This document shows, piece by piece, positions 16,048-38,780 of a DNA stretch of 64,000 nucleotides. The notes beneath the pieces are model-generated. The model was not told the DNA's origin, did not search any database, and was given only the letters and a program-made list of their open reading frames with translations. The position numbers were made by a program, and so were the translations under genes. Position 1 is the stretch's first letter. Every line of letters begins with the position of its first letter. The stretch is from Acidobacteriota bacterium (lineage in GTDB: Bacteria > Acidobacteriota > UBA6911). The stretch covers positions 4,896,001 to 4,960,000 of the forward strand of contig OY761556.1 in NCBI GenBank assembly GCA_963664705.1, written 5' to 3'.

Positions 16048-16065
16048 TTTCGAAGATACCGGCCT

Positions 16066-17082
16066 ATGCGTAACAATACTCGCATTCTACTACTCCTTTT
16101 GGCTGTATTGCCGTCCCTTTCATTTCTTTGGGCAGGTAAGAAACCCACGGAGCCAACAGAATCCTGTGCGACCAGGGAATGTCATAATTCCTATCGTCAG
16201 AAACAATTCGTTCACAAACCCGTGGCGCAAGGCTCATGCAAGTATTGCCACAAGCTCGTGAATCCTAAAACACACACCTTTAAGTTGTTTCGCACCAGGA
16301 CTGAACTCTGCGGTAATTGTCACAAGGAGATACTCCAGGGAAAAAACCTTCACAAACCGCTGGAACAGGGGCAATGCACGGAATGCCACAACCCGCATAG
16401 CAGCGATAACAAAGCCCTTGTCCGATTTGCAAACATTGAGGAGGCATGCCGCAAGTGTCATAAAAAGAAGGAAGACGTGAAAAATCCTCACGAACCGGCG
16501 GCCAAAGGCAAATGCACCGCCTGTCACAGCAGTCACAGCTCACCCTATAGACCATTGCTCATCAATAGCCAGCGGCAGCTGTGCTTCTCCTGTCATGAAA
16601 AGACAAAATGGGAATTGGATGAGTATAAGTATGTTCATAAACCGGCCACAGATCGGGGATGCAGGGTTTGTCATGAACCACATGGAAGCGATTACTACCG
16701 GTTGCTGGTCAAGGAGTATACCCCGGAATTCTATGCTCCATTTGATATTGCGAATTATGCACTTTGTTTCACGTGCCATCAGGCCAATCTGGTGTTAAAC
16801 AAGGAAACGGACAATGCGACCGATTTCAGAAATGGGAAAGTGAACCTTCACTACCTGCATGTTAACACGCAGGAAAGGGGACGGACCTGCCGGACGTGTC
16901 ATGCCACCCACGCAAGCAATGAGCCCCGGCACTTGCGCAAGGTGGTCCCCTATGGGGACTGGGAGATTCCAATTCAGTTCAACAAAACAGAAACCGGCGG
17001 CGGATGCTCTCCTGGTTGTCACAATCCGCGGACCTATGACAGGGTCGAAGCAGTTGTTTACAAATCCGATGGAGCGCATTAG
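16066..17082 (+). CDS. Periplasmic multiheme cytochrome c (9 CxxCH + CX4CH + CX3CH)
   Basis: Signal peptide; repeated 'HKP...C..CH.PH.S' doubled-CxxCH units; CATRECH and CSPGCH. Confidence 0.9.
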   Translation: MRNNTRILLLLLAVLPSLSFLWAGKKPTEPTESCATRECHNSYRQKQFVHKPVAQGSCKYCHKLVNPKTHTFKLFRTRTELCGNCHKEILQGKNLHKPLEQGQCTECHNPHSSDNKALVRFANIEEACRKCHKKKEDVKNPHEPAAKGKCTACHSSHSSPYRPLLINSQRQLCFSCHEKTKWELDEYKYVHKPATDRGCRVCHEPHGSDYYRLLVKEYTPEFYAPFDIANYALCFTCHQANLVLNKETDNATDFRNGKVNLHYLHVNTQERGRTCRTCHATHASNEPRHLRKVVPYGDWEIPIQFNKTETGGGCSPGCHNPRTYDRVEAVVYKSDGAH

Positions 17083-17139
17083 GCCAATATCTGTTTTTGA
17101 GAACCCGGGCCAGCAAAAGGAAACAGACGAGGGATAGAG

Positions 17140-18405
17140 ATGTATCTCAGGTTGGACAGCCGTTCCAGGAATTCCGGGCAAATCCGAGACAGGATTGTGC
17201 GGACACTCTTCACAGGGTTTATGGGGCTTGCGCTTCTGGTGAGCTGCAGGACGCTTTCCGCACAGGAACCGAATCCGGGACCGGGGCCAATCTATGGTCC
17301 GCATTCGCCACTGGGTTCAAGGGAATGCACGGACTGCCACAAGCGGGCAGTTTCAACCACCCTGCGCTGCCTGGCAGCCAAAACGGATCTGTGTGAATTT
17401 TGTCACCAGGTTCCTCCGGAAGGAGGTCTTGCCCAACAGGTTCGTTCATCGGAGCCACTTTGCTTCAAGTGCCACAAAAGAGATCAATTCAAAGCCAACT
17501 ATGCTCATGGTCCTTTCATTGCTGGAGCTTGCGTTACCTGTCACGATCCGCATGGTGGAGAGGTTCCGGGAATGCTGCGCATTGCGGGTTCACAATTGTG
17601 CCTGGATTGCCATAAGGATTTCAGCGCGCGTTTTTCAAATGCGAGTTTCCGGCATAAGGCCGCTGTCAATAATTGCCTGGATTGTCATTCCCCACACATG
17701 TCCGACCAACGACACCTGCTGAAGTCAGCGCCCCCCGGGCTTTGTGGTAAATGTCACCAGGGAATCATCGGAGATCTTCAAACTGCCGCAGTCATACATT
17801 CACCAGCCAGGGAAACGCCTTCCTGTATGAACTGCCACGATCCGCACATGGCAAAGGAAAAAAGTCTGCTCCTAGCGGACAGGTTAGACAGTTGTCTGAA
17901 GTGCCATGACAAACCGGTTAAAGGCGCTAAAGAAGAATTCGCGGATATGAAGAAACTGCTGGAAGCAAATCCGTATCCGCACGGACCGATCCAAAGCAGA
18001 GACTGTTCGACATGCCACAACCCGCACAGTTCGTCCTATTCCCGACTATTGACGAACCAATACGCTCCGGGCTTTTATGCTCCTTTTTTCATTTCAAATT
18101 ACAGCCTCTGTTTCCGCTGCCACGATGCCGTGCTGGCTACCGAAGAGCATACAACCAGTACCACGGAGTTCCGCGACGGCGATCGCAATCTTCATTATGT
18201 TCACGTCAGCAAGGCATCTCACGGAAGGACCTGCCGTTCGTGTCATGAGGTTCATGCAAGCTCGGGCCAGAAGCACATCGCGAAAACCGTCCCCTTTGGA
18301 AATTGGGAACTCCCGGTTCAATACGAAAAAACTGAAGATGGAGGCACCTGTACGCCGGGCTGCCATACTGTGCAGAAATACAGCCGCCAGCAGGGCAAGC
18401 AGTAA
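17140..18405 (+). CDS. Periplasmic multiheme cytochrome c (12 CxxCH + CX3CH), paralogue of the upstream gene
   Basis: 12 CxxCH counted; C-terminal 'T.FR.G..NLHY.HV...GRTCR.CH..HAS...GG.C.PGCH' shared with 16066..17082. Confidence 0.9.
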   Translation: MYLRLDSRSRNSGQIRDRIVRTLFTGFMGLALLVSCRTLSAQEPNPGPGPIYGPHSPLGSRECTDCHKRAVSTTLRCLAAKTDLCEFCHQVPPEGGLAQQVRSSEPLCFKCHKRDQFKANYAHGPFIAGACVTCHDPHGGEVPGMLRIAGSQLCLDCHKDFSARFSNASFRHKAAVNNCLDCHSPHMSDQRHLLKSAPPGLCGKCHQGIIGDLQTAAVIHSPARETPSCMNCHDPHMAKEKSLLLADRLDSCLKCHDKPVKGAKEEFADMKKLLEANPYPHGPIQSRDCSTCHNPHSSSYSRLLTNQYAPGFYAPFFISNYSLCFRCHDAVLATEEHTTSTTEFRDGDRNLHYVHVSKASHGRTCRSCHEVHASSGQKHIAKTVPFGNWELPVQYEKTEDGGTCTPGCHTVQKYSRQQGKQ

Positions 18406-18670
18406 ATCACCGGTTGACCACTTACATTCTGTGACCTGGGTGTAAAGAAAACAAAACAACCTGTTTTTCATTCCCTGCTGAATAATCCCGATGCGTACGC
18501 GGCTGGATTTCAGCAGCGTATCCATCCACTAAATATTACATTATAAATAACTTAATCTGGAAAATCCGATTTCCTGACAGTCATTACGGCCGAGGCAATC
18601 CCTTCCAGAGCTGCAGGATTGCATTTTTATATGAATATGATTCCCTATTTCATGATATAGTTTCCGTCCA

Positions 18671-18687
18671 ATGAAAATTGATTTCAT
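18671..18687 (+). promoter_or_regulatory. Putative Fur/Zur-like operator
   Basis: Palindrome ATGAAA-ATTGA-TTTCAT in an AT-rich region just upstream of the GGAGG RBS (18701-18705); a weaker similar site at ~18631-18653. Confidence 0.4.
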
Positions 18688-18712
18688 ATTTAGGCTATAC
18701 GGAGGCTATTTC

Positions 18713-19573
18713 GTGAGATATCTTTGCGCTCTAGCAATATTAGTTGGAATACCCCTTCAACCAATTTTTGCCCAGCAGAATCCCTATTTTGTGACCTATG
18801 ATCACCGGATGGAGGAGCCGCAGAATCTGGAAATCTCAACGCAGAGCACGGTGGGGATCCCGAAGGGCGATTTGCCTGGATACCTGGGCCAGCTCCTGGA
18901 GATTGAATATGGCGTGACGCCGCGCTGGTCCTCTGCGCTATATCTGGAAGGAGCCTCGCAGAGGCACGACAGCACCGTATTCACCGGATTCCGCCTGGAA
19001 AACCGTTTCAAGGTGCTGAAGGGAGAACACCGGATCAATCCTGTGCTCTATTTCGAATACGAGAACATTAACGAGGCAAGCCGGATCAAGAAGGAGATTT
19101 TGGGACATGCGGAGCCTTCCAACGAATCACTTCAGGAACCGAAACAGGAAACCGCGCGCGAGCTCGAGGCGAAACTTATCTTGTCCTCCGATATCAAGAG
19201 CTGGAATGTGGCCGGGAATTTTATCGTTGAAAAAAACCTGTCTGAAGACGAAGGATTTGAGTTTGGCTATACGTTGGGGATGTTTCATCCGCTGTCCGGC
19301 AAATCCGCCTGGTGCCGACTCTGCCAGAGCATTTCAGTCGGCGCTGAACTCTATGGCGGCCTTGGAAGCACCGATCAATTCGGTTTCAAGGACACGGCCC
19401 ATTATATTGCACCTCTGCTCGTCTGGAACTTTGCGGCCAATCAAGCGGTCAAGGTATCGCCTGGCTTTGGCTTGACGACCGTCAGCGATCGCATGCTCCT
19501 GCGCTTCGGCTACGTCTATGAGTTGAATGGCTTTGGTCACAGAGTTTCAAAGCTGTTTCGATCCAGGAGTTGA
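18713..19573 (+). CDS. Putative outer-membrane beta-barrel protein
   Basis: GTG after GGAGG; signal peptide; alternating beta-strand pattern; 'LLRFGYVYEL' near the C-terminus. Confidence 0.6.
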   Translation: MRYLCALAILVGIPLQPIFAQQNPYFVTYDHRMEEPQNLEISTQSTVGIPKGDLPGYLGQLLEIEYGVTPRWSSALYLEGASQRHDSTVFTGFRLENRFKVLKGEHRINPVLYFEYENINEASRIKKEILGHAEPSNESLQEPKQETARELEAKLILSSDIKSWNVAGNFIVEKNLSEDEGFEFGYTLGMFHPLSGKSAWCRLCQSISVGAELYGGLGSTDQFGFKDTAHYIAPLLVWNFAANQAVKVSPGFGLTTVSDRMLLRFGYVYELNGFGHRVSKLFRSRS

Positions 19574-20785: not shown

Positions 20786-21742
20786 TTAAATCTGAGGCGG
20801 TTGGCCTGCACGGCTGCCCTCCGCCGGAAACAAAAACGAGGCAACCACGGAAAGGAAAAGCAATGCCGCCACGATCCCCAGGGACAACGCAATGGGCACA
20901 TGGAAAAAGCCGGCGATCAGCATCTTGATTCCTACGAACGCCAGCACAAGTCCAAGGCCGACCTTCAGGAATCTGAATTTCCCAATCATCCCGGCCAAAA
21001 GGAAATACAGTGCGCGCAATCCGAGAATGGCAAAAATATTGGATGTGAACACAATAAAGGGATCCGTCGTGACAGCAAAAATCGCGGGAATGGAGTCTAC
21101 CGCAAAGACGATGTCGGTGGCTTCAATGGCCAAAAGCACCATCAGCAGGGGGGTGGCATATCGTCGCCCCGCTTCCTTCACGGTGAACCTGGCGCCCCGA
21201 TAGTCCGGAACGGACGGGATAATCCGGCGCGATAGACGGAGTACGATATTACGCTCCGGGCTTATATTGCCTCCCTCTCGTGCTGCCAATAGTTTGATGC
21301 CGGTGAAAACCAGGAACGCTCCGAAGATATAGATCACCCACTGGAACTGCTGGATGAGTGCCGCGCCGGCCATAATAAAGCCCGCGCGCATGAGGAGCGC
21401 TCCGACGATGCCCCAGAAAAGCACTCTGTGCTGAAGCTGTGTCGGAACGGCAAAATATGAAAACAAAACCAGGAAAACAAAAAGATTGTCGACCGAAAGA
21501 GCCTTCTCGATCAGGTACCCGGTCAGAAATTCGAGTGCGCGGTCCTGTCCAAACCAGAAATAAACGCCCGCGTTAAACAAAATTGCAAGTCCGATCCAAA
21601 CCACCGACCAGGCAAGCGCTTCACGCATTTTTACGGCGTGTGCATTGCGGTGGAACACCCCGAGATCCAGGGCGAGCATCGCAAGAACGAAAATAGTGAA
21701 CCCTATCCACATCGCGGGCGTTCCGATACTCACAGCCACCAT
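20786..21742 (-). CDS. terC: TerC/Alx family membrane protein
   Basis: 'GYLIEKALSVDNLFVF', 'QHRVLFWG', 'DIVFAVDSIPAIFAVTTDPFIVFTSNIFAILGLRALYF'; ATG 21742 with GGGAG RBS. Confidence 0.92.
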   Translation of the reverse strand: MVAVSIGTPAMWIGFTIFVLAMLALDLGVFHRNAHAVKMREALAWSVVWIGLAILFNAGVYFWFGQDRALEFLTGYLIEKALSVDNLFVFLVLFSYFAVPTQLQHRVLFWGIVGALLMRAGFIMAGAALIQQFQWVIYIFGAFLVFTGIKLLAAREGGNISPERNIVLRLSRRIIPSVPDYRGARFTVKEAGRRYATPLLMVLLAIEATDIVFAVDSIPAIFAVTTDPFIVFTSNIFAILGLRALYFLLAGMIGKFRFLKVGLGLVLAFVGIKMLIAGFFHVPIALSLGIVAALLFLSVVASFLFPAEGSRAGQPPQI

Positions 21743-21779
21743 TTCAATTCTCCCGACAAAGCTATGGCACGCATCCGGT

Positions 21780-22049
21780 TCACAGCGCACTCCCGGCAAC
21801 TCGCGGCTTTCCGTGAGTTGGCACCGATTTCTGTCGATAGCGCTTCGGGGCTTGTGACGGCCAATGTACCTCCAATTCGAGATCCACCTCTCCGAGACAG
21901 ATCTCCAATTCCTCTTCAACCACTACATGATCCGGGATCTGGATTGACTTGCTTCCGATCTTGACCGGCTTGCCCACGGATATCTGCAGCGCAAGATAGT
22001 GAAGCCGTCGCGCCAGGGCATAGCGGCTCAATTTCCGTTTTGTTTTCAT
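21780..22049 (-). CDS. Amphi-Trp domain-containing protein
   Basis: 'LSRYALARRLHYLALQI...IPDHVVVEEELE...LELEVHW' fits the amphi-Trp layout (amphipathic helix, beta strands, Trp closing the domain). Confidence 0.65.
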   Translation of the reverse strand: MKTKRKLSRYALARRLHYLALQISVGKPVKIGSKSIQIPDHVVVEEELEICLGEVDLELEVHWPSQAPKRYRQKSVPTHGKPRVAGSAL

Positions 22050-22136
22050 ACGGCCATCTCCATTTGCAAAGCACCTCTATTGTCAGAATACGGAACGGGC
22101 CTTCACTTAGACAAACAGATAAAATAACCTTATTTA

Positions 22137-22151
22137 TTCGATTTAATCGAA
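22137..22151. promoter_or_regulatory. LysR (NhaR-type) recognition site
   Basis: TTCG-ATTTAAT-CGAA dyad containing T-N11-A, in the divergent nhaR promoter region. Confidence 0.6.
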
Positions 22152-22164
22152 GTATAGTTCCGTA

Positions 22165-23103
22165 ATGGAATGGATCAACTACCACCATCTGCTCTATTTC
22201 TGGATCGTATCCCGGGAAGGGAATCTTGCACGTGCGAGCGCAGAGTTGCGCCTCGCCCAATCAACCGTGAGCAAGCAGATCCATCAGCTCGAGGCGATGC
22301 TTGGCCACAAGCTTTTCTCCAAAACCGGTCGCCGGCTGGTGTTGACCGAAAGCGGCCGCGTGGTCTTCCGGTATGCCGAAGAGATTTTCGGTCTTGGCCG
22401 GGAGATGGTCGATACCCTCGGAGATCGCCCGGTCGGAAAGCCGCTTCGGGTAACAGTCGGAGTTGCTGACATTGTCCCCAAACTGGTGGCCGAGCACGTT
22501 CTGGCTCCCGCCCTAAAGTTGACGGGGCAAGTGCGGCTGATATGCAGGGAGGACAAACCGGATCGCCTGCTGGCCAATCTGGCTCTGCATGAATTGGATG
22601 TTATTTTGACGGATGCTCCGGCCAGTCCGCAGGTAAACATCCGCGCATTCAGCCATTTGCTGGGATCTTCAGAGGTCGCCTTTTTCGGCCGATCGGAGCT
22701 CGTGTCGAGATATCGTCGCAATTTCCCGGCCTCGCTGAATAGCGCACCGGTCCTCCTCCCGACGGAGAACACCATGATGCGCAGGTCCCTGGAGCAGTGG
22801 TTTGAATCGGAAGGGATCCGGCCGGATGTTGTCGGAGAATTTGAAGACAGTGCGCTTCTAAACGTATTTGGGTTTCGAGGGGCAGGGCTGTTCCCGGCAG
22901 CCTCGGTGATCTCCAGGGAGCTCGAAAAGCAATACAAAGTCCGTTGCGCCGGCATCGTAGCGGGCGTTCAAGAACGGCTCTATGCGGTCACGGTGGAACG
23001 ACGGATAAAACATCCGACAGTCGCCGCGATCATCAAGGCAGCCGAGACTTGGTTTAAGCCGGCCCAGGGCGGAAGCCGGGAAATAGTTTCCACGCATCCT
23101 TAG
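22165..23103 (+). CDS. nhaR: NhaR-like LysR transcriptional activator
   Basis: 'MEWINYHHLLYFW', 'VGVADIVPKLVA', 'GEFEDSALL', 'ERRIKHP'. Confidence 0.88.
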   Translation: MEWINYHHLLYFWIVSREGNLARASAELRLAQSTVSKQIHQLEAMLGHKLFSKTGRRLVLTESGRVVFRYAEEIFGLGREMVDTLGDRPVGKPLRVTVGVADIVPKLVAEHVLAPALKLTGQVRLICREDKPDRLLANLALHELDVILTDAPASPQVNIRAFSHLLGSSEVAFFGRSELVSRYRRNFPASLNSAPVLLPTENTMMRRSLEQWFESEGIRPDVVGEFEDSALLNVFGFRGAGLFPAASVISRELEKQYKVRCAGIVAGVQERLYAVTVERRIKHPTVAAIIKAAETWFKPAQGGSREIVSTHP

Positions 23104-25466: not shown

Positions 25467-25703
25467 TTAGTTCATTTTTTGGATAGAGGATATTTCCACG
25501 TTTGCGGAATTCAGCAGAGCGCGTACCCGCGGTTCATCGCACCAATCGAAGCGCAGCGCCATCCCGCAGTCGCTCGAAAACTCACGGGGTGTGGGAATTA
25601 ATTTGACCGAAAATCCATCCTTCAGCAGAAGCTTTTCCGAACGCAATGCCGCCGAACTTGTGTAAAACAGAATCACACCAAATATTTTGATCTCTTGAGG
25701 CAT
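25467..25703 (-). CDS. DUF3343 family putative Se/S carrier protein
   Basis: 'FYTSSAALRSEKLL', 'LIPTPREFSSDCGMALRF'. Confidence 0.85.
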   Translation of the reverse strand: MPQEIKIFGVILFYTSSAALRSEKLLLKDGFSVKLIPTPREFSSDCGMALRFDWCDEPRVRALLNSANVEISSIQKMN

Positions 25704-25709
25704 AGTGCA

Positions 25710-26852
25710 CTATTGAAGAATTTTATTTACCGCGTCGACCGCCAGATCCACTTCTTCCTTCGTTGCCTCCAATCCCAAGGCTAAACGAACAGTACCGTCA
25801 GGAAATGTCCCGATCGTACGATGAGCCGCCGGCGCACAGTGTAAGCCAACACGGCTCAGGATTCCAAATTCATCGTCCAGACGCAATCCAATTTCGGAGA
25901 CGCGATGCCGGGCTGCAGTGAAGGAAACAATCGATGTACGCCGAGTCACATCCGCAGGGCCGTAGATGTCGACTCCATCCATATTCGCCAACCCTTCAAT
26001 GAGCCGCCGGGTCAACTCAATTTCCCTTGCGCGAATCGCCTCAATTCCTCTTTCCATTATGTACTGAAGGCCGGCGCCAAGTCCGGCAATTCCCGGGCCG
26101 TTCAAAGTACCGCTTTCAAATTTATCCGGCAAATCTTCAGGCTGTATCTCGAATTCAGAACGGCTCCCGGTGCCTCCGCGCCAGAGGGGCTTCATCTCTT
26201 CAGGATGCGCTGCGCTTCCGATTATCAATCCGCCGGTTCCCTGCGGCCCCTGCAATCCCTTATGCCCGGTGAAGGCCAAGAGATCGATGCCCATGGCGCC
26301 CATATCGATGGGCACAACACCCGCCGTTTGCGCCGCATCGACCAGCAACAATGCGCCTGCTTGATGGACTATCCTCGCAATCTCATGAATCGGAAGAATG
26401 GTGCCAACGACATTGCTGGCATGAGTAACCACCACCATTCGGGTAGAGGGACGCAATGCACTGGCAAAAGACTCCGGAGCCACAGAGCCATCCCGCGCAC
26501 AGGATATCACCGTTAGTTCGATCCCTTTTTTTTCGAGATCCCGCAGCGGCCTCATGACGGCATTGTGTTCCATCGAGCTTGTGATGACATGATCTCCCGG
26601 TCCTAAAATCCCGTAGAGACACAGATTGATTGCCTGGGTAGCGTTGGCTGTGAAGATTACTTTCAGGGGATCCGGGGCATTGAAGAAATTCGCCAGAGTT
26701 TCGCGCACGTTGTAGACGATGCGTCCGGCCTCGATGGACAAACGGTGCCCGGCACGACCCGGATTGCCGCCCCTCACCAGGAAATCTGCCATCGCATGGA
26801 GAACAGCGGGCGGTTTCGGCCAGGAGGTTGCGGCATGATCGAGATATATCAT
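25710..26852 (-). CDS. Cysteine desulfurase / selenocysteine lyase family PLP enzyme (class V)
   Basis: 'IYLDHAATSWPKP', 'EHNAV', 'VDAAQTAG', 'FTGHKGL', 'RVGLHCAP'. Confidence 0.92.
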   Translation of the reverse strand: MIYLDHAATSWPKPPAVLHAMADFLVRGGNPGRAGHRLSIEAGRIVYNVRETLANFFNAPDPLKVIFTANATQAINLCLYGILGPGDHVITSSMEHNAVMRPLRDLEKKGIELTVISCARDGSVAPESFASALRPSTRMVVVTHASNVVGTILPIHEIARIVHQAGALLLVDAAQTAGVVPIDMGAMGIDLLAFTGHKGLQGPQGTGGLIIGSAAHPEEMKPLWRGGTGSRSEFEIQPEDLPDKFESGTLNGPGIAGLGAGLQYIMERGIEAIRAREIELTRRLIEGLANMDGVDIYGPADVTRRTSIVSFTAARHRVSEIGLRLDDEFGILSRVGLHCAPAAHRTIGTFPDGTVRLALGLEATKEEVDLAVDAVNKILQ

Positions 26853-26858
26853 GGGCCT

Positions 26859-27581
26859 TTATTCCAGACAATTTTGCGACATCAAGGTCGCTTCATAGAA
26901 GTTCACACCCAGATAGCACCAAGTGCCATTTCGTCGGTACTGCGCCAGACCGCGTTGGGTGCGGCCGTCAAGGTAAGAGAACAGGCCCTCGGAAAAAGCA
27001 TCATACTCGGCGGGCTGGAAAGGCCGTTCGACCCTGGCCCTGCGTCGGAGAGTAAATCCTTTCCTTTCGAACAGCGGCATGACTCTCAACGGAAAGGCCC
27101 AATCGGTAATCAGCATATATAGCCGTCCGCCGGGCATGAGATAGCGTTCGGCTTTCGCGGCCAGTCTGCGCAGGTATTTGAGCCCATCAGGTCCCCCATA
27201 CCTGGCTGCGAGAATCGGTTTCGGAGCAGGAAGCTGCGGAAGGGTTGTGATGATAATGTCAAACCGTTCCCCTCGGACCGGAGCAAAGAGGGATCCGACG
27301 CGTCCATCAACCCGCGTGATGCCATTCCGGGCGGCATTCCGGAGTGCGCAGGTTACGGCGGCGGGATCAATATCGGTAAGGACGATTTCTCCCGCTCCGC
27401 GCACCGCAGTGGAAAGACCATAGCCTCCCGCCCCGCAGCCGAGGTCAAGAACTCTGTCGCCGCGCCGAACGCGTATCGCCGCCGCAACCGTATCCGCATA
27501 CGGATCCGGATGATGCACCGGCGAGTCCACCGATAGGGAAATTGGGCTGTGGGGAGGAACCTGCAACTTAAATTTTTTCAT
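26859..27581 (-). CDS. Class I SAM-dependent methyltransferase (HemK/MTS-like)
   Basis: 'VLDLGCGAG', 'TDIDP', 'GSLFAPV...FDIIITTLPQLP'. Confidence 0.85.
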   Translation of the reverse strand: MKKFKLQVPPHSPISLSVDSPVHHPDPYADTVAAAIRVRRGDRVLDLGCGAGGYGLSTAVRGAGEIVLTDIDPAAVTCALRNAARNGITRVDGRVGSLFAPVRGERFDIIITTLPQLPAPKPILAARYGGPDGLKYLRRLAAKAERYLMPGGRLYMLITDWAFPLRVMPLFERKGFTLRRRARVERPFQPAEYDAFSEGLFSYLDGRTQRGLAQYRRNGTWCYLGVNFYEATLMSQNCLE

Positions 27582-27628
27582 AAAAAAATCTCTTTGATAA
27601 AAAAACACTCAATCGAATTACATAATGG

Positions 27629-28735
27629 CTAGGCTGTCGTTTTTTCTCTCATCAGCAAACCAAGAGTGACGCAAACAAGGATGCCGACGATCACCGCAAC
27701 CGGACCATAGGGACTGGGACCGGCCGGAGAGCTTGCCAGATTGAAATTGTGGGCAAATCCTGCGCCGACAAGCATGCCTATGACAAAGACGGCGGCATCG
27801 CCATCCCCTTCGCCGGACAAAAAGACCTGGCGGCCGGGACATCCTCCCGCCAGAGTAAATGCCAGGCCGGACAAAAGCATTCCGGCAAAATTCCACAATC
27901 CAAAGGTGTGCGCTATCGGCTGCTCCGCAAAACCGGGCTTAAATTGCCCCAACGCCAGGTTGGTTACAAATGAGGCCAGAACCAAAGCGATCACTCCGCT
28001 GAACAGATTCACATTTTTCAGGAGGATCAGATCCCGCACGGCTCCGACCGTACAGAATCGGCTGCGCTGCGCCAGAAACCCGATCAGCAAACCGGCAGCC
28101 AGGGAAATCCATATTCCCGCATGTTGGCTGCCGGGACCTTTCGCCGACAGAAATATCGGACCGATGGGTTTACCTTCCGGATCCCGCCCCAGTTGCGGCG
28201 CAAGGATCAATAAAAGCAGCAGGCCGATCATCAGAGCAGGCATTACCCATCCGAGCACATTAGAAGCCGGATGCGATCGCCCCAAGCTAAAGCCCATACG
28301 CAACAGGACTACGCCCACTGCAACCCCCGCTGCCAAACCGAGAATTCCCAGAAGTGCATTCCAGTCGCCGCCGCCCAGACGCAGAAAAGCGCGCCAGGGA
28401 CAACCCAGAAACACGAGAGCTCCGATCATGGAAAGAGCGCCCAGAAGAAATTTGATGAGCGGAGAAGATCCGGTGCGTGGACGGAATTCACGAAAGATCA
28501 ATGCCGCAACAAGAGATCCCAATATAAAACCGATGATCTCGGGCCGTATATATTGAACGGTGGCCGCGCGGTGAAAACCCAGGGCTCCCGCAATATCCCG
28601 GCTGAAACAGGCAACACAAACACCCATATTGGCAGGATTGCCCAGCTTGACCAAAATGGGAGCCAGCACACCCACCGCTAGCCCCGTGACAATTATTCCC
28701 CCGCGGGAAGACAGGAAACGGCCAATTGCGGACAT
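27629..28735 (-). CDS. yedE: YedE family putative selenium/sulfur transporter
   Basis: 'GNPANMGVCVACFSRDIAGALG', 'FLGCPWR', 'QRSRFCTVG', 'LAGGCPGRQ'. Confidence 0.9.
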   Translation of the reverse strand: MSAIGRFLSSRGGIIVTGLAVGVLAPILVKLGNPANMGVCVACFSRDIAGALGFHRAATVQYIRPEIIGFILGSLVAALIFREFRPRTGSSPLIKFLLGALSMIGALVFLGCPWRAFLRLGGGDWNALLGILGLAAGVAVGVVLLRMGFSLGRSHPASNVLGWVMPALMIGLLLLLILAPQLGRDPEGKPIGPIFLSAKGPGSQHAGIWISLAAGLLIGFLAQRSRFCTVGAVRDLILLKNVNLFSGVIALVLASFVTNLALGQFKPGFAEQPIAHTFGLWNFAGMLLSGLAFTLAGGCPGRQVFLSGEGDGDAAVFVIGMLVGAGFAHNFNLASSPAGPSPYGPVAVIVGILVCVTLGLLMREKTTA

Positions 28736-28821
28736 TATATTTATTCCTTTCGTTTCAACTTGGATTACATTGCCAGGAACATATTTTCACTATCGCTATT
28801 GTCGCTGTTGCCAGGCCTACC

Positions 28822-29667
28822 CTATGAAATAGCATCTTGAGTAATTGGCAAATACCCGACCGCATCGGACCGGCATCGCGTGCAATGATGCATCTGCCGG
28901 ACATAGGGACTCGCCCGCTGTCTCAACCATCTCATCTTTTCCTCACTGGGAGCCGCTATGCCCGCCATTTCTGTTCCAGCCAGAGGGATCAACGGCAGAA
29001 AATTCATCAAGTCCACCTGGAGGTTGCCCAGGTTCTTGGCAAGAAACGGCAAATGGTGTTCATTGATTCCAGGAACAACAACAGTGTTGATCTTGACGAT
29101 GATTCCGGCAGCTTTCAAACGACCGATGGCTTCGAGCTGCGTAGATATCAGGCCATGAGCCGCTTCCATACCTCTGAAGATTCTTCCGGCAATCGAAATC
29201 CACGGATGCAGCCGCGCCCCGATGAAGGGATCGATTGCATTGACCGTGATCGTTACATAGCCGACGTTCAAGGCGGACAAGTGCGGGATAGAGCCCATCA
29301 CATTCAATCCATTGGTGGAGACGCACAAAGCAATGTCCGGATTTTTCCTGCGAATAAGCTCAAAGGTCTTCAAGGTGCATTCCGGATCACAGAAGGCATC
29401 TCCCGGTCCCGCCACCGCCGCTACCGAGATGTGCGGCGTTTCTCGGAGTACCTGTTCCAGCCGCTCGGATGCTTCTTCCGGGCTCAACACGCCGGTGCAG
29501 ACACCGGGTCGGTTTTCATTGGGACAATCATGATCGCGGCGGCAATACGCACATTGGATATTGCAGGACGCAGCTACAGGCAGATGCACCCGCCCATATT
29601 TCCCTTTGGCCCCGGCATAAAAGCAGGGATGAATTTTCTGTTGCGTAGGCACGATGGCAGATGACAT
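28822..29667 (-). CDS. nifB: Stand-alone NifB-like radical SAM protein (no NifX domain)
   Basis: HPC, CNIQCAYC, ENRP, AGPG, TITVN and CTRCRSDAVG motifs; 281 aa. Confidence 0.8.
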   Translation of the reverse strand: MSSAIVPTQQKIHPCFYAGAKGKYGRVHLPVAASCNIQCAYCRRDHDCPNENRPGVCTGVLSPEEASERLEQVLRETPHISVAAVAGPGDAFCDPECTLKTFELIRRKNPDIALCVSTNGLNVMGSIPHLSALNVGYVTITVNAIDPFIGARLHPWISIAGRIFRGMEAAHGLISTQLEAIGRLKAAGIIVKINTVVVPGINEHHLPFLAKNLGNLQVDLMNFLPLIPLAGTEMAGIAAPSEEKMRWLRQRASPYVRQMHHCTRCRSDAVGYLPITQDAIS

Positions 29668-30471
29668 TTACGCTTTCCTCCCAGGGCGCCCGATGTGAAT
29701 GGCGTCACGAGGGCAAAGGGATGTGCAGTCGCAGCAGTTTGTGCAGTTGACCTCTGCAGGGCGAGTTCCCATTTCACAAACTTGAAGGCATTGATTGCAG
29801 CCGTCGCATTTGTCGTCTTTGTAAACCTTAAACAGGGAAAGCGATTTGATAATTTCCAATGCGCCGCCCGTGGGACAGGCAAACCGGCACCAGGCGTTGG
29901 CAAGGAGCAGTCCCAGCAGGACGAATCCCAAAACAAAAACGGACCGGATCAGCCAGAGCGGATGCGCGTTCTTGAACGTAAACGCGAACGAAGCGAAGAA
30001 CTCTCCGATTCGAATCGGCACAGCTTCACGCGGTTGTCCATAAGGCAGCCAAATGCAGAGCGCCACCAGCAGCCCGATATACTTAAAATAGGGTGCGGTC
30101 TTCGTAAAACCGTTTCTGATTCGCAGCTTTGCCGACGATGCCATTCCAAGCAGTTGATGGAGTAATCCTCCGGGACAGAACCAACTGCAAAAAGCCCTGC
30201 CAAAAACCAGCGCGGAGATAGGTAGCAGGAGCCAAAAGCCCCAGAACATCGTGAGAAGCCTGCCATGACAGGTAATGACCGGGCAGTTCTGGCAGCTTAC
30301 GTACGGCACTATGAAAGGGCAGCGAAAAATGCCGTAAAAGGACCACTGCCCAAGAACAGCCAGCGAAGCGCACTGAGCAACCCGACGCCACCGGGTAACC
30401 GGCGCTGTTTTGCTTTCCTCCCCTGACAATTCGTTCATCACTGCAAGCTGAGCCACGTTGACCTTAGACAT
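29668..30471 (-). CDS. Membrane polyferredoxin (NapH/YccM-like 4Fe-4S binding protein)
   Basis: 'GRAFCSWFCPGG', 'WCRFACPTG', CDGCNQCLQVC, CTNCCDCTSLCP; TM segments. Confidence 0.88.
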   Translation of the reverse strand: MSKVNVAQLAVMNELSGEESKTAPVTRWRRVAQCASLAVLGQWSFYGIFRCPFIVPYVSCQNCPVITCHGRLLTMFWGFWLLLPISALVFGRAFCSWFCPGGLLHQLLGMASSAKLRIRNGFTKTAPYFKYIGLLVALCIWLPYGQPREAVPIRIGEFFASFAFTFKNAHPLWLIRSVFVLGFVLLGLLLANAWCRFACPTGGALEIIKSLSLFKVYKDDKCDGCNQCLQVCEMGTRPAEVNCTNCCDCTSLCPRDAIHIGRPGRKA

Positions 30472-31333
30472 CTTTCACCCCCAGTTTCTCAACCAAACGA
30501 CGCCCTTCATCCGACATGGCGGGGATAAAGCCTGCGGACTGAAAGAATCCCTGTCCTTCCTCCGACAAAATGAAATCCACAAAATGATTGGCCAGTGCCT
30601 TGTCGCGTGCGTTTTTCATCACGCCAATGGTGAAGGTCAGCGGACCGGCAGGGAAAAATTCCTCAGGGATTGGAAGAACCTCTACTTTTCCGCTGAAGAG
30701 AGGCATCCGCGTCAACCTGCATTCAACCACGGACACATCCCCTTTTCCCTTTACCAGATCCTCCATCGTGCGCTGGACGCAGCTGCCTTTGATTACAGCA
30801 TTTTTCATGGCCTGATCCAGAACTCCAGCCTTTTTCAGCAGCCCGGTGACCGCTTCTCCGCCCGGCGCTGAGGCATCGGGAGCAAGAATTACCCTGACCC
30901 CCTGCTTTGCCAGGTCCTGTATAGCTGAAATGCCCGCGGGGTTGCCTTTCGGCGTGACCAACACATAGGAAGTAAAGCAGAGCGGCTTAAAGAACGACAT
31001 TTTGTTCGCGCTGCGCAGCTTCTGGGCCAACGCGAGAACTCTTCCCGCAAATACCTCAGTGGTTGCGCTGCCCAAAAGCGATTTGCCTAAGGCGGCGGCA
31101 AAAGCACCGGTAAAAGCGATCTCAATTCCGGTCTTTGTCCGGTATTGCTTGTTTGCAGGAATAAAGGCTTCCGCCAGTCCACCACAAGCCCAGACCTGAA
31201 GCGTATTCTGCCCAAACGATAGTGATTCCGAACCGGCTGCGGCAACCGTTGCGCCTGCTGCGGCCCCGGTGGCGACAGTCAAAAAGGCCCTGCGGTTCAA
31301 GAGGGATTGCGGTACTGTTTCAGTCATATGCAT
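30464..31333 (-). CDS. ModA-like (molybdate/oxyanion) substrate-binding protein with Tat signal
   Basis: 'NRRAFL' Tat motif; 'LVTPKGNPAGI...DLA', 'APGG', 'FVDFILSEEGQ...GF'; four Cys. Confidence 0.8.
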   Translation of the reverse strand: MHMTETVPQSLLNRRAFLTVATGAAAGATVAAAGSESLSFGQNTLQVWACGGLAEAFIPANKQYRTKTGIEIAFTGAFAAALGKSLLGSATTEVFAGRVLALAQKLRSANKMSFFKPLCFTSYVLVTPKGNPAGISAIQDLAKQGVRVILAPDASAPGGEAVTGLLKKAGVLDQAMKNAVIKGSCVQRTMEDLVKGKGDVSVVECRLTRMPLFSGKVEVLPIPEEFFPAGPLTFTIGVMKNARDKALANHFVDFILSEEGQGFFQSAGFIPAMSDEGRRLVEKLGVKDV

Positions 31334-31595
31334 TCTCGCCTTTGAAAAGGTCGCGTAATCGAGTCTTAATTAATGGTGTTGAGACGCGTTTTATCTAAAC
31401 CTGCGCATCTCCAAGTTCAGCCCGGACCATATTGCTGGTTTGAGAAAGGAACGATGCTAATTCGGAATGCCCGTGAGATCGGCCCGCCCACAGATTCGTC
31501 CAACAACCCGGTCAGATGACGATCCTGTTTCACGTAAAGCCGAATACGTTCATTACGAAAGCCCTTGCGGATTCAATATAGTTAAGAAAATCCTT

Positions 31596-31636
31596 ATACA
31601 TATATGCTATCTATATGTCAAATAGATATATTTTAG
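31596..31636. promoter_or_regulatory. Tandem putative LysR boxes in the divergent promoter
   Basis: ATACATATATGCTAT (31596-31610) and ATAGATATATTTTAG (31622-31636); also the dyad ATCTAT-N7-ATAGAT. Confidence 0.5.
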
Positions 31637-31701
31637 GTTAATTATCGTTGTTTGAGAGAGCGAAACATCATTACTTTGCCGGTATTGTTTAACGAGGGAC
31701 C

Positions 31702-32592
31702 ATGGAACTGAGATATATCGAGATATTCTGCGCAGTGGTAGAACTGAAGAGCTTTTCCAAGGCCGCCCAGGCGTTGCATCTGACTCAACCGACGATCAGC
31801 GTGCATATCAAAGCCCTGGAAGACGAGTTTTCGACCAAGCTTCTGGACCGTCTTGGCAGAACGATCCTGCCGACCCAGGATGGCGAAATTCTTTACAGGT
31901 ATGCAAAAGAGATCGTCACTCTGAAAGAGAATGCGCGCAAGGCGATGGAAAGGGTCACCGGCACGGTGAGCGGCAAGCTTACTATCGGCGCAAGCACGAT
32001 ACCGGGAGAGTACTTGCTCCCGCGCCTGCTCGCTGGATTCAGAAAGGCTTATCCCGATGTATTTCCCACACTCCGGATCGCCGATTCGAATGACATTTAT
32101 GAAAGTGTGCTCCGCGGCGAAGTGGATCTGGGCGTCATCGGGAAAGAGGTGAAAGACAAAAACATCATCCTGCAAAAGTATCTGGGCGACGAGATCATTC
32201 TTGTCGCACCGGCAACATACAAGCCTTCCAAATTGCATCGAGACGAAGTCAAAACAGTCCCGCTGATCGTCCGGGAGAGTGGCTCCGGCTCTCGGTCTTC
32301 GCTGGAAGCCCATCTGCAAAGGATCGGACTGTTGTTGGACAGCCTCAATATTGTCGCGGAAATCGGTTCCACGCAATCGCTGATCCAGGCGGTGAAATTT
32401 GGCATGGGATTGGCCTTTACTTCCAGTCTTTCGGTCAAAGATGAGATTGAGCGAGGAACGTTGAAGGCCGTTCAAATAAAAGGAATGGCGATTTTCAGAA
32501 ATTTCTATGTCATTACTCACCGGCTGCGCTTCAACTCGCTGATTTGCAGATCCTTCATCGATTTCCTCACGCAGTCCGGCGGGAAAAAATAA
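31702..32592 (+). CDS. CysL-like / selenium-metabolism-associated LysR regulator
   Basis: 'SFSKAAQALHLTQPTIS', 'GASTIPGEYLLP', 'RESGSGSR'; divergent from the YedE cluster. Confidence 0.85.
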   Translation: MELRYIEIFCAVVELKSFSKAAQALHLTQPTISVHIKALEDEFSTKLLDRLGRTILPTQDGEILYRYAKEIVTLKENARKAMERVTGTVSGKLTIGASTIPGEYLLPRLLAGFRKAYPDVFPTLRIADSNDIYESVLRGEVDLGVIGKEVKDKNIILQKYLGDEIILVAPATYKPSKLHRDEVKTVPLIVRESGSGSRSSLEAHLQRIGLLLDSLNIVAEIGSTQSLIQAVKFGMGLAFTSSLSVKDEIERGTLKAVQIKGMAIFRNFYVITHRLRFNSLICRSFIDFLTQSGGKK

Positions 32593-32609
32593 CCAAGGTC
32601 TCATCTGCT

Positions 32610-32624
32610 ATAGATATATTCAAT
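32610..32624 (+). promoter_or_regulatory. Putative LysR box upstream of the porin gene
   Basis: ATAGATATATTCAAT; first 11 nt identical to 31622-31632. Confidence 0.45.
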
Positions 32625-32694
32625 TGGACATATTTAGGATCTAACGGTACTAATGCGGAACTAGTAAAGCCAACGATCCTACGGAGGGACATAC

Positions 32695-34182
32695 ATGCGA
32701 CAGTGGCGGTATTTTTTTTCAGGCGGGGTTTTTTTGTTATCGGTTTTGAGCGCGGCATTGATCCCCGGTAGTGTGCGGGCGGAAACCAAGCTATTTGCGC
32801 TAGACAAAAACACCAGTGTTTCGGCCTCCGGTGAAATTACGGCACGAAACACCTATGAAAACTGGTTTGAACCAGCGTCGACGAATTACAAAAACAGTTA
32901 CGATTATTTTTTTACGCGCACACGCCTGGCCATTGCCCTTCGCAATCCATACATCCATGCTTATGTGCAGGCCCAGGACGTTCACATGTGGAATCTTCCT
33001 GAAAGCTCTATTGCTCCGGCGCCTCAGGGAGCCCTGGGTAGCGGGGCAACCTATTACTCCCATGCCAAGAGCGATTTCGATCACAGCCTGATAATCCGGC
33101 AAGCCTACCTGGATTTCCCCAAGCTCTTTTTGAAGGGGCTTTCCACAAGGATTGGTCGCTTCGATTATGCGGATGGCCAGGAGGTCACCTATAAGGATAA
33201 TCCCAAGGTGACGTGGCTCAAGAACACGCGCTTGTCTGACCGGATGCTCGGCGCCTTTGACTGGTCTTCTTACAATCGCAGTTTCGACGGGCTTCAGGCC
33301 AAATATGACAGGAAGAATTTCAATCTGTACGTTTCCGTCACCCACCCGACGCAGGGAGGCTATGAGAACAATGCTCAGAAGACGATCTCTTCCATAAACC
33401 TGGGCAACATTACCGGCACGATCAAATATGGCGGATGGCTGAAAAACACTGAAGCGCGCATTTTCTATTATTATTACTTCGATCACAGAAACATTCCGAC
33501 CACACTCGGACAAAGCGGTCTGAAGGATGGACCGATTCGAATCAACACCTTCGGCACCCACTGGCTGCACACTGAAAGCACCAAATCCGGCGTATTCGAT
33601 ATGCTCTTCTGGGGCGCGCTCCAGGATGGGAAATGGGGCGCCGTGGATCACAAAGCATGGGCTGCGGCGATAGAAGGAGGGTTTCAGTTCACAAAGATTC
33701 GCTGGAAGCCCTGGATTCGAGGCGGCTATTTCGCCTCATCCGGCGATTCGGATGCCACGGACGGGAAGCATGAAACCTTTTATCAGATGCTTCCAACGGC
33801 TCGCAAGTATGCGCTTTTTCCATTTTACAATTTGATGAACAATGAAGACCTGTTCATTCAGACCATTTTGAAACCCAAAGAAGCTTTCTCCATTCGAGCG
33901 GATCTTCACAGCCTTAGCCTTCAGAACTCCCATGACCTCTGGTACATGGGGGCGGGCCCGACACAGAGTTCGGGTACCATATTTGGGTATACGGGGCGTC
34001 CCAGCAACAATCAGAGCGGGTTGGCAACAGTCCTGGACATTTCTCCCAGCTATACATTCTCCAAGTACCTGTCGGCAAACCTCTATTATGGTCACGTTTT
34101 TGGACGGGATGTCCTGAAGAGCATCTATCCCAAAAATTCAAATGGCGATCTGTTTTATATAGAGATGAAGACACAATTCTAG
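32695..34182 (+). CDS. Alginate-export family outer-membrane porin
   Basis: Signal peptide; 'IRQAYLD', 'RSFDG', 'SSGDSDATDGKHETFYQMLPT', terminal F. Confidence 0.8.
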   Translation: MRQWRYFFSGGVFLLSVLSAALIPGSVRAETKLFALDKNTSVSASGEITARNTYENWFEPASTNYKNSYDYFFTRTRLAIALRNPYIHAYVQAQDVHMWNLPESSIAPAPQGALGSGATYYSHAKSDFDHSLIIRQAYLDFPKLFLKGLSTRIGRFDYADGQEVTYKDNPKVTWLKNTRLSDRMLGAFDWSSYNRSFDGLQAKYDRKNFNLYVSVTHPTQGGYENNAQKTISSINLGNITGTIKYGGWLKNTEARIFYYYYFDHRNIPTTLGQSGLKDGPIRINTFGTHWLHTESTKSGVFDMLFWGALQDGKWGAVDHKAWAAAIEGGFQFTKIRWKPWIRGGYFASSGDSDATDGKHETFYQMLPTARKYALFPFYNLMNNEDLFIQTILKPKEAFSIRADLHSLSLQNSHDLWYMGAGPTQSSGTIFGYTGRPSNNQSGLATVLDISPSYTFSKYLSANLYYGHVFGRDVLKSIYPKNSNGDLFYIEMKTQF

Positions 34183-37006: not shown

Positions 37007-37372
37007 TCAATAGGCAACGGACGGAGAGCCATTCGCCAGCCACTCTACCAGTGCTGCTCCTCCAGCCGGAGTAGCCCCCTTGATGAGCTGGTCTTCGCCG
37101 ACATTGCGTTTCTTCATGCAGGGAGTACAAACCAGGATCTTCCCCCCTCCCGCAACAAATTTATCCATGAGCTCTTTGAGCGGAGCGAATGGCGGACCCT
37201 CCTTGATTTTTTCCGCCTCTCCTTGTACCGCGCACCAAATGCCGTCACTGCTCAGGAATACCATCGTCTCCTTTTCACTGCCGAGTGCTGCATTGGCGAC
37301 CACGAAACCCAAAGTAGCCTTATCCCCATCCGTACGACAGTGAGTAATGGTTACACAGAATGTACCGGCCAT
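37007..37372 (-). CDS. DsrE/DsrF-like family protein
   Basis: 'FLSSDGI', 'GGKILVCTPCMKKR', 'PAGGAALVEW'; AAGGAG RBS. Confidence 0.85.
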   Translation of the reverse strand: MAGTFCVTITHCRTDGDKATLGFVVANAALGSEKETMVFLSSDGIWCAVQGEAEKIKEGPPFAPLKELMDKFVAGGGKILVCTPCMKKRNVGEDQLIKGATPAGGAALVEWLANGSPSVAY

Positions 37373-37437
37373 CAGTCTTGCTCCTTTCTTCTCGGAATAT
37401 TGTCCATAGTACAGTATTGAACCCCGGTTCAAAAATT

Positions 37438-38457
37438 CTAGTGCACTTCAATTTTTTTAATGCGCTTCACAGAACGTCCGCCGGTGCTGTCTTCCCCTGT
37501 CACCGACATTGCGAATCCATCGGCAGGCGACAGCGGTTTGCCGTCCTTCACTGTGGCAATGACAATCTGGTCGCCCATGCGCGAATTAAAAAGTTCGCCA
37601 AAGGAGTAGGTTGCGCAATAACCATCGTCGCTGGTTATAAGAACATAGCGGTTGTAGGGCGCGGGATCCGATATGGAGATGTATTTCTTCAGGAAAACAG
37701 ATAGCGGAACGCCATCCAGGTCATGGATCCCGTGGAAGCCCTCGCATTCGCCAATCATGACGGCTGCGGGAATGTGGATTTTGGGCAGAGCTTTGAGGTC
37801 CGCAGGATTCACAATGCGCTGAATTTTGCCGATCTGGTCGGTGAGGGAGAATTCGGTGCTGGGAGGACGAACCTTTTTCTTCTCCTGATCATCGTAGGCC
37901 AGGAGCTCAACATCCACACGAGAAACCTTTATCTCTGTCAAATTCGTCATTGTGCGGCCGTCATGAATATCCGTGGCAACAACCAGGGTTGGCGAACAAG
38001 GCAGCTCCTCGCGTTCATACGCTATCAGGACACTGCGCCCAATGCTGGAATAAAAGATCTCTCCAAACGAAAACACGATTTCCCGGTTGTCTCTATTCCG
38101 GATTTGAATGAACGTGCCCGGCTCCCATTTTCGCTTATGCTTCATCCCGGCTTTCCATAGAATGTCCCGCAGGAGGACGCCGCGAAAGGTGGTTTGTGTC
38201 ACCTTTTCCTTATCCTGCCGGTCACGCACCCGCTCCGGAATCACCGGGACATCGCGGATGAGAAATGGCGGCATCGCTTTGAGATCAGCAAGGGATACGG
38301 ACAATTCCTTTTGCAGCTCGCCTCGAACCGCAATTGAAGCCTCCTGGGAAAGGGCTCGCCTGGCCAGGAAGGGAGTGAGCAAAGAACAACACAGGCAGGA
38401 AACCATCCAACAGGCTTTCCCAGCCTTTGCAAAACGCATATTGAACAAGGAGAACAT
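37438..38457 (-). CDS. Exported protein with two tandem Oxidored_molyb-like (molybdopterin-binding) domains
   Basis: Internal duplication: 'FRGVLLRDIL...IVFSFGEIFYS...DIHDGR' and 'LDGVPLSVFL...ATYSFGELFNS...DSTGGRSVK'. Confidence 0.65.
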   Translation of the reverse strand: MFSLFNMRFAKAGKACWMVSCLCCSLLTPFLARRALSQEASIAVRGELQKELSVSLADLKAMPPFLIRDVPVIPERVRDRQDKEKVTQTTFRGVLLRDILWKAGMKHKRKWEPGTFIQIRNRDNREIVFSFGEIFYSSIGRSVLIAYEREELPCSPTLVVATDIHDGRTMTNLTEIKVSRVDVELLAYDDQEKKKVRPPSTEFSLTDQIGKIQRIVNPADLKALPKIHIPAAVMIGECEGFHGIHDLDGVPLSVFLKKYISISDPAPYNRYVLITSDDGYCATYSFGELFNSRMGDQIVIATVKDGKPLSPADGFAMSVTGEDSTGGRSVKRIKKIEVH

Positions 38458-38780
38458 CGGAAGCTCCCTTTGAGAATGCGGCAATCGCCTCGTTGCCGGC
38501 TCCTCGCGGGAGGTCTAGCAGGATGGTGGATTCCTCTGCAGAGTATTTCCCGGACGGATACGCAATGATGCGATCTGTTTGGTCATCAGCACTTGCACGC
38601 CGTGCAACCAATGCCGGGTTCAGGTTTTTCGTACGTAAATCACCATTTTTTCCTCGGGGGCGGAGTTTAACACAAGGTATTCGATCGCGCAATTTTTGCA
38701 TTCCTGCCCGATGAAGGAGCGCAATACCGGTGCGAACTGCAAAAATATTGAGATATAGGCACTAAAGGGTAAAAAGCCGT

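Follow-up and report, generated by a model that had tools for sequence, protein, structure and literature searches.

Outside the nitrogenase family, the L-cluster made by the radical S-adenosylmethionine (SAM) enzyme NifB is known from the methyl-coenzyme M reductase (MCR) activation complex (McrC/Mmp7), where, in the accessible portions of PMC13474568 and PMC12176620, one McrC cluster is described as held by two cysteines. In their available portions, two texts on selenium gene sets, PMC5322559 on the YedE/YedF/DUF3343/LysR_Se set and 10.1101/2022.07.06.499078 on the SAO system, contain no mention of NifB or ModA. The locus described here lies in a window of 64,000 nucleotides (nt) from an Acidobacteriota bacterium (GenBank assembly GCA_963664705.1, contig OY761556.1, positions 4,896,001 to 4,960,000 of the forward strand), and its core consists of three adjacent genes encoding a substrate-binding protein (SBP) of ModA fold, a membrane polyferredoxin and a stand-alone NifB. 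The chances are about even that these three genes form a redox module that scavenges selenium and carries a carbide cluster made by NifB.

The module would share with the MCR activation complex the use of the NifB product outside the nitrogenase fold. However, the complex, as those sources present it, is archaeal, cytoplasmic and tied to F430, whereas the module is bacterial, both membrane and periplasmic, and built from unrelated folds, its cluster binding being only predicted. With NifB (TIGR01290; PDB 6y1x, 7bi7, 7jmb) and MarB, NflB and IsrB, the cassette enzyme has six motifs in common, and, like the NifB of methanogens, it consists of one radical SAM domain only. Unlike these enzymes, it belongs to an operon, and in many cases to a genome, without nifHDK, nflDK or marHDK; its partners are a membrane polyferredoxin and an exported protein of binding-protein fold, with a selenium LysR as regulator. 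The described selenium sets resemble the locus in their accessory genes and double-cubane neighbours, and SaoB and SaoX of the SAO system are likewise cysteine-lined binding proteins; in the same portions of the source, however, SAO has an ABC permease and selenocysteine (Sec) residues, whereas the cysteines of the window SBP were not seen as Sec. No description of the trio was found in the literature covered, from which subscription papers and bioRxiv supplements were excluded, nor in the accessible portions of PMC5322559, PMC13188914, 10.1101/2022.07.06.499078, PMC12176620, PMC13474568, PMC3464626, PMC10701300 and PMC10418091. The module is new as a system, each part belonging to a known fold.

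The three-gene unit and its relation to NifB

In the window, the operon occupies the minus strand and begins with the SBP gene (30464..31333; 289 amino acids (aa), 287 from the second Met; PF13531; product predicted to be periplasmic), followed by genes for the NapH/MauN-like polyferredoxin (29668..30471; 267 aa; PF12801) and the NifB-type radical SAM enzyme (28822..29667; 281 aa, without a NifX domain) and then, in order of transcription, by those for YedE, a methyltransferase, a desulfurase and a DUF3343 protein. Successive genes are separated by an 8-nt overlap, 0, 86, 20, 6 and 6 nt. Together with a divergent LysR gene and an outer-membrane porin gene, these make up the nine genes that the initial annotation had grouped into an island; an open reading frame check and family scans found them in the same places, with the families as described.

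When GTDB genomes were scanned with the SBP alignment, 146 stretches were confirmed, and the 80 best loci among them formed the comparison set. Neighbours were surveyed in these and in four loci from relatives (84 in all), three of which lie on contigs already represented in the set. By record title, the 80 loci belong to no fewer than five phylum-level groups: Desulfobacterota, Acidobacteriota, Bacillota, Planctomycetota and SAR324. The polyferredoxin gene lies immediately 3' of the SBP gene in 75/80 loci, the remaining five stopping at the SBP through contig ends, and 56/80 loci contain a NifB match, one of them (L093) being a nif-type gene 6 kb off. Accessory partners are far scarcer: YedE and the porin in nine of the 80 loci each, the LysR in seven, the desulfurase in three (one merely 29% identical), the methyltransferase in one (L047, the closest relative) and DUF3343 in one by tblastn, which undercounts these short and divergent genes. 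Locus L047 holds all nine genes in unchanged order, and L057 holds eight in the same order, with YedF in place of the methyltransferase and DUF3343 undetected. The grouping of the island genes thus exceeds chance, and the gene order is conserved in other genomes, all nine genes in L047 and the core over the 80 loci. As a conserved unit, however, the nine-gene island is rejected outside close relatives by the partner counts: the unit is the three genes for the SBP, polyferredoxin and NifB, and the other six are variable partners. A metagenome scan from a distant member returned 47 near-identical gut-type loci with the polyferredoxin in 44, NifB in 41, the desulfurase in 40 and YedE in 39.

The window NifB has all six motifs that define NifB (HPC, CxxxCxxC, ExRP, AGPG, TxTxN and CxxCRxDAxG; PMC5715403, in its accessible portions), with AGPG and TxTxN scored loosely, Ser being permitted at the first position (the window reads AGPG and a TVTVN-type ITVN). 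Among cassette homologues, HPC, CxxxCxxC, AGPG and TxTxN are found in 55/55 and ExRP in 48/55. The window protein scores 284.7 bits against TIGR01290 over profile positions 8-276 of 441, under the cut-off of 343.65, as expected of a single-domain form, since the model extends over the NifX part; in the PDB it matches single-domain archaeal NifBs best (6y1x, E 5.7e-69). A midpoint-rooted tree of 66 NifB sequences, from which rows L028-L031, L106 and L125 were omitted as truncated or gapped, has weak deep nodes and groups the 15 nif-type NifBs in a single clade (support 0.989). The sole cassette copy inside it is that of L122, where a 439-aa long, nif-clade NifB occupies the cassette position. 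The cassette NifB likely builds an [8Fe-9S-C]-type cluster, as the pattern of its replacement by ordinary NifB, given below, indirectly suggests.

The closed host genome (G000; a single 6.89 Mb contig, 98% complete) encodes nifHDKEN and, inside the nif cluster, its own two-domain nifB. The island enzyme is 45% identical to that NifB and is the only other homologue in the genome, and is therefore a second, stand-alone copy rather than the displaced nifB of a nif system elsewhere. A side observation in the same genome is a 735-aa NflH-NflD fusion with a second NflD-like gene in a cobalamin biosynthesis/uptake cluster (L023, G000:C1:6416471-6419972), which falls below the CfbC and NifH cut-offs and has no adjoining nifB.

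Of 52 genomes with the complete trio at the locus, 50 were searched genome-wide; a match to the nitrogenase component I family (PF00148) was found in 30 of these 50 and in none of the other 20. Twenty further genomes have the SBP and polyferredoxin without an adjoining nifB; nitrogenase genes are present in 20/20 of these and a long-frame NifB elsewhere in 19/20. Three of the nifB-less loci end just past the polyferredoxin, and in each the genome-wide search found long NifB only. The losses of cassette nifB fall into 11 clades of the core-gene tree (about 0.004 at a background of 0.6), and nifB loss is associated with nitrogenase presence at Fisher's p 0.0003, kinship ignored; G238 retains an 82-aa nifB remnant and has three other NifBs. 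In a draw of 201 genomes from the class of G090, the SBP occurs in 20, and NifB is present in 20/20 carriers vs 68/181 non-carriers. In nine carrier genomes of 1.8-2.2 Mb, no NifB besides the cassette copy and no nitrogenase-family match was found (five searched at E<=0.001, four at E<=1e-60), and HGD-D/double-cubane proteins were absent from the five small carrier genomes tested. Since the trio occurs in nitrogenase-free genomes and nifB is lost only where nitrogenase is present, it is probable that the module needs NifB activity and that an ordinary nif NifB can supply it. That the unit is unrelated to nitrogen fixation, as the initial annotation had proposed, is borne out by these carriers and by the separate nif-cluster nifB of the host.

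Three other stand-alone NifBs that were examined, from small genomes of G090's class, adjoin nflD/K-like genes, and NifB in this class therefore usually adjoins its client. A divergent nflD-nflK-nifB trio was seen in small genomes (L232, L233 and L234 in G205, G291 and G300), with no nifH match within 14 kb, and G076, G110, G214, G238 and G265 have 16 to 23 nitrogenase-family matches per genome.

Binding protein, polyferredoxin and selenium context

The window SBP carries a twin-arginine signal (RRAFL, residues 14-18) and the invariant Cys50, Cys119 and Cys185. Among its homologues, RRxF is kept in 81/82, C119 and C185 in 82/82 and C50 in 81/82 (one gap), and tatC is present in 5/5 carrier genomes searched. 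With an RRxFL signal and tatC in the genome, the protein is a predicted substrate for export by the twin-arginine translocation (Tat) pathway. Sec was not seen at its cysteines (C119 and C185 are Cys in 82/82), although open-frame extraction would miss UGA forms. In alignment with E. coli ModA, the residues Ser12, Ser39 and Tyr170, here taken to be the molybdate ligands (numbering checked on E. coli ModA), correspond to G52, A79 and E204. The partners of C50 and C185 are A10 and D151, which lie next to ligand positions, one on each lobe. The A11C/R153C mutant of ModA in PDB 3axf is reported to bridge the cleft.

The closest structures of the SBP are ModA and sulfate-binding folds, and it shares the type II periplasmic binding fold with ModA, WtpA and Sbp. 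It differs from them in having no equivalents of Ser12, Ser39 and Tyr170, in its three invariant cysteines and Tat signal and in the absence of modBC from the operon. The family is discrete, with just 25 representatives at E<=1e-30 among 1.84 billion sequences, and its ESM Atlas matches are generic SBP_bac_11 clusters only. A role as molybdate ABC receptor is ruled out by the lost ligands, by a score of 41.4 bits against the ModA model TIGR01256 (cut-off 62.5) and by the polyferredoxin as next gene in 75/75 loci with room for it. The oxyanion import of the initial annotation is not supported in the form given there, the SBP having lost the oxyanion ligands of ModA and neither an ABC permease nor an ATPase being encoded in the window operon; ABC ATPases occur somewhere within 18/84 loci, not all placed relative to the core. 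In L103, L115, L124 and P0124, NifB and the SBP lie in one open frame, which in P0124 has no Met before the twin arginines. Distant SBP relatives of 727-759 aa (P0155, P0186) combine WSCGG and the second Cys with long TPR-like tails.

Like NapH, MauN, RdxA and NosR, the polyferredoxin combines membrane helices, of which about four are predicted, with two CxxxCP motifs and a C-terminal 2[4Fe-4S] domain, but it scores 56 bits against the napH model, far under the cut-off of 213. Unlike those proteins it has an extra four-Cys loop (C51-x8-C60-x2-C63-x4-C68), predicted from positive-inside residues to face outward, and no napA or nosZ partner. Sixteen cysteines are invariant in 77/77 homologues, and a fold search with its model gave no PDB match at E<=0.001. 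Complex prediction for the SBP and polyferredoxin scored 0.39 against 0.00 for the best control (runs 0.39, 0.45 and 0.01), with predicted contacts agreeing at least 52% and partner pLDDT of at least 83. Passing scores of <=0.60 were reached by 18 solved complexes out of 157 and by the only two mismatches, out of 215, that passed at all. The modelling hints that the two proteins may form a complex.

The tie to selenium is strong. Trio genomes contain selD in 46/50 cases and selA in three of the four without selD, and in the class draw selD was found in 19/20 SBP carriers vs 98/181 non-carriers; the host itself has two selD, two selA and tRNA-Sec calls, so that the host, as the initial annotation had suggested checking, has both nif genes (nifHDKENB) and sel genes. 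The specific curated models passed in the island are selenium ones. The putative selenium transporter YedE (27629..28735, minus strand) reaches 493.6 bits with TIGR04112 (cut-off 200), and the divergent regulator (31702..32592, plus strand) reaches 312.9 bits with the LysR_Sec/HrsM-type model NF040786 (cut-off 250), which replaces its earlier description as CysL-like. The other accessory genes of the minus strand encode a HemK2-like class I SAM methyltransferase (26859..27608; family scan), a pyridoxal phosphate enzyme of cysteine desulfurase/selenocysteine-lyase type (25710..26852; 461 bits, passing TIGR01977; 416.5 bits against the SclA model NF040779, under the cut-off of 525) and a DUF3343 Se/S carrier-like protein (25467..25703; 72 bits, passing PF11823). 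On the plus strand follows an Alginate_exp-family outer-membrane beta-barrel, the porin (32695..34182; PF13372), which sits directly 5' of the core in L101, L102, L108, L111 and L118.

Two LysR-type boxes (ATAG-N7-CTAT-like), 22 bp apart, lie at 31600..31636 and flank a minus-strand TTGACA hexamer at 31621-31616; a third, the genome's fourth best single site, lies 5' of the porin gene (32610..32624). The box precedes 34/71 SBP genes (shuffle mean 6.7, maximum 9; spacer controls of 6 and 8 nt gave 4 and 6), and similar boxes precede the porin in L047, L050, L057 and L108.

A sister SBP family is found in Methanococcales. In M. maripaludis, the products of an adjacent pair, AVB75435 (SBP) and AVB75436 (polyferredoxin), are 32% and 29% identical to the window proteins, and AVB75436 keeps the same four-Cys loop. 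The pair probably corresponds to MMJJ_00160 and MMJJ_00170, a mapping assumed from identical annotation text and from the numbering. According to the accessible portions of PMC11097638, MMJJ_00160, 00170 and 00180 rise 55-, 14- and 8.5-fold on selenium depletion, as do YedE, DUF3343, TusA/D and an HgdB-family gene, whereas nifHDK fall; the supplement labels MMJJ_00170 and 00180 as ModB and ModC. The selenium connection drawn in the initial annotation is thus upheld by the YedE and LysR_Sec models, the selD enrichment and the methanococcal sister pair.

Proposed mechanism and competing explanations

That the unit needs NifB, accepts an ordinary NifB and persists without a known client is most simply accounted for by a client within the unit. 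The exported SBP is favoured as the cluster site by its Tat signal, by two cysteines placed on either side of a cleft that has lost its ligands, and by the electron conduit in the membrane; the selenium gene context suggests the likely purpose. In the proposed mechanism, the stand-alone NifB would build an [8Fe-9S-C]-type carbide cluster to be installed within the module, the likeliest place being the cleft of the cysteine-lined SBP exported by Tat. Placement of the cluster between Cys50 and Cys185, or else on the membrane protein, is the weakest step and could equally well prove right or wrong. The polyferredoxin would pass electrons to the cluster, and selenium would be released reductively from an oxidised or organic selenium compound, with selenite as the first candidate. 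In all probability, LysR_Sec would induce the genes when selenium is short, the porin would admit the substrate, and YedE, DUF3343 and the desulfurase/lyase would pass the freed selenium to SelD. The full version, in which the SBP is a Tat-exported enzyme that holds an [8Fe-9S-C] cluster between two cleft cysteines and cleaves or reduces selenium compounds with ATP-free drive from the polyferredoxin, is tentative and somewhat doubtful. The flow would likely be opposite to that of the initial annotation, the cluster serving selenium acquisition and not selenium feeding a cluster.

Several observations weigh against this mechanism. Tat signals occur on cofactor-free proteins too, and the methanococcal sister SBP has a lipoprotein-type signal without twin arginines and no Cys119. 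A TatC search gave no match in the M. jannaschii control, and cytoplasmic cluster loading followed by export therefore cannot be the rule in that branch. ExRP is absent from the deep-branching cassette NifB clade, and the SBPs of L103 and L124 keep their own ribosome site and ATG, so that the open frames shared with NifB may be lost stops and not fusions. On the selenium side, selD is common in G090's class (117/201), neither selD nor selA was found in the searched assemblies of G074 and G226, the box is LysR-type and not selenium-specific, with the genome's best tandem pair at an unrelated LysR promoter, and no strong LysR box was found at the host genome's sel loci. Most genomes in the counts are incomplete assemblies, and kin are not independent.

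The main alternative, built from the same parts, would make NifB itself the catalyst: the SBP captures selenite outside, YedE imports it, and in the cytoplasm cluster-bound NifB reduces the selenite at the ninth-chalcogen site to selenide, the polyferredoxin supplying the electrons, without export of any cluster. In the accessible portions of PMC13474568 and PMC13245594, respectively, NifB reduces and inserts sulfite, selenite and tellurite in vitro, and NifB with bound L-cluster acts as a catalyst when a ferredoxin donates the electrons; replacement by an ordinary NifB, the Tat-less methanococcal branch and the cytoplasmic ferredoxin domain also fit. This route leaves unexplained the invariant outward four-Cys loop, the near-universal Tat signal and the in-frame NifB-SBP joins, YedE accompanies the trio in just 9/80 loci, and a nif-regulated NifB would be a poor substitute for a selenium-regulated catalyst, all of which makes it unlikely, if still worth weighing. 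The module might instead handle sulfur (sulfite, thiosulfate, organosulfur) or a Mo, W or As oxyanion, its selenium neighbours reflecting the clustering of trace-element genes. The ModA and sulfate-binding structures nearest to the SBP, the kinship of YedE with thiosulfate transporters, the two assemblies without selD and selA and a sulfite-oxidase-like Mo protein with DsrE 3 kb away speak in its favour, but the loss of the ModA ligands, the passing of TIGR04112 and NF040786 as specific models, the enrichment of selD over background and the response of the probable methanococcal orthologues to selenium depletion render it improbable.

The remaining two explanations place the client elsewhere. 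Supply of Se or S by the module for a substituted Fe-S(-C) cluster of a separate client, such as a double-cubane reductase or a nitrogenase-like enzyme, is quite improbable, even though double-cubane genes occur in 14/84 loci and 35/50 trio genomes and a selenium-bridged double cubane was once raised as a formal possibility (10.1101/2022.07.06.499078). The accessible text of that same source describes the double cubane as 8Fe-9S, with no carbide, the closed host genome has no double-cubane protein above the cut-off (best 193.5 vs 350), and the five small carriers have neither HGD-D nor nitrogenase-family genes. The double-cubane link raised at the outset holds for a frequent neighbour (all eight HgdB-like neighbours tested pass NF040772) and not for an obligate client, which the host and the five small carriers rule out. 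It can hardly be expected that the radical SAM gene lies here incidentally, as a spare or displaced nifB whose product works for nitrogenase or the host NflHD proteins: the host does have nifHDKEN and an NflH-D fusion without adjoining nifB, and 30/50 trio genomes have nitrogenase-family genes, but the nif cluster of the host has its own nifB, cassette NifBs other than that of L122 fall outside the nif-type clade, and the trio is kept in genomes without nitrogenase-family genes. As a general explanation it is refuted by the nitrogenase-free carriers.

Surroundings of the module and wider meaning

Around the trio, YedF-like genes recur in 14/84 loci. A four-gene set of YedE, YedF, a longer DUF3343-like protein and a YjeF_C-like enzyme adjoins it in L064, L074, L076, L081, L105 and L108, and an exported protein, at times rhodanese-fused, that reads as transglutaminase-like by its sequence, with no model match, occurs in 15/84 loci (e.g. 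L094:11660-13363, L109:1024-2037). In the window, a DsrE-family protein and an oxidoreductase-like protein of the molybdopterin (sulfite-oxidase-like) type are encoded at 37007-38484 on the minus strand, with homologues near the module also in L080, L086 and L104. A multiheme cytochrome, a TtrB/DsrO-like Fe-S protein, NrfD and two doubled-CXXCH cytochromes at 13116-19573 (plus strand) make up a putative respiratory module, and a TerC/Alx transporter with a divergent NhaR-like LysR lies at 20786-23103. An Rfam scan of the window gave zero matches, and promoter and terminator scans did not rise above shuffles (4 vs 6.9 and 12 vs 12.3). Elsewhere in the host genome (L024, G000:C1:3066000-3080000), a second selB-selA-selD set, whose SelD open reading frame has long extensions (545 aa), lies near MtaA-like methyltransferases, a corrinoid protein and an AcsV-like activase and resembles the mlp clusters of type I, for which a role in methyl-selenium recycling has been proposed.

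Two settings of the NifB carbide cluster are known, the nitrogenase superfamily and the MCR activation complex, and the module points to a bacterial client outside both, encoded by a compact operon of three genes that lends itself to expression. It explains the retention of nifB in some nitrogenase-free anaerobes, and nitrogen fixation cannot be deduced from a nifB match in these lineages. The module also bears on the acquisition of trace selenium by anaerobes, for which, in the accessible portions of PMC11097638, no dedicated transporter is known, the probable sister locus not having been deleted by its authors. If the full version of the mechanism is true, the SBP would be the first extracytoplasmic L-cluster enzyme and the third protein scaffold for this cluster, spanning organisms from sediment sulfate reducers to small gut-type nitrogenase-free anaerobes.

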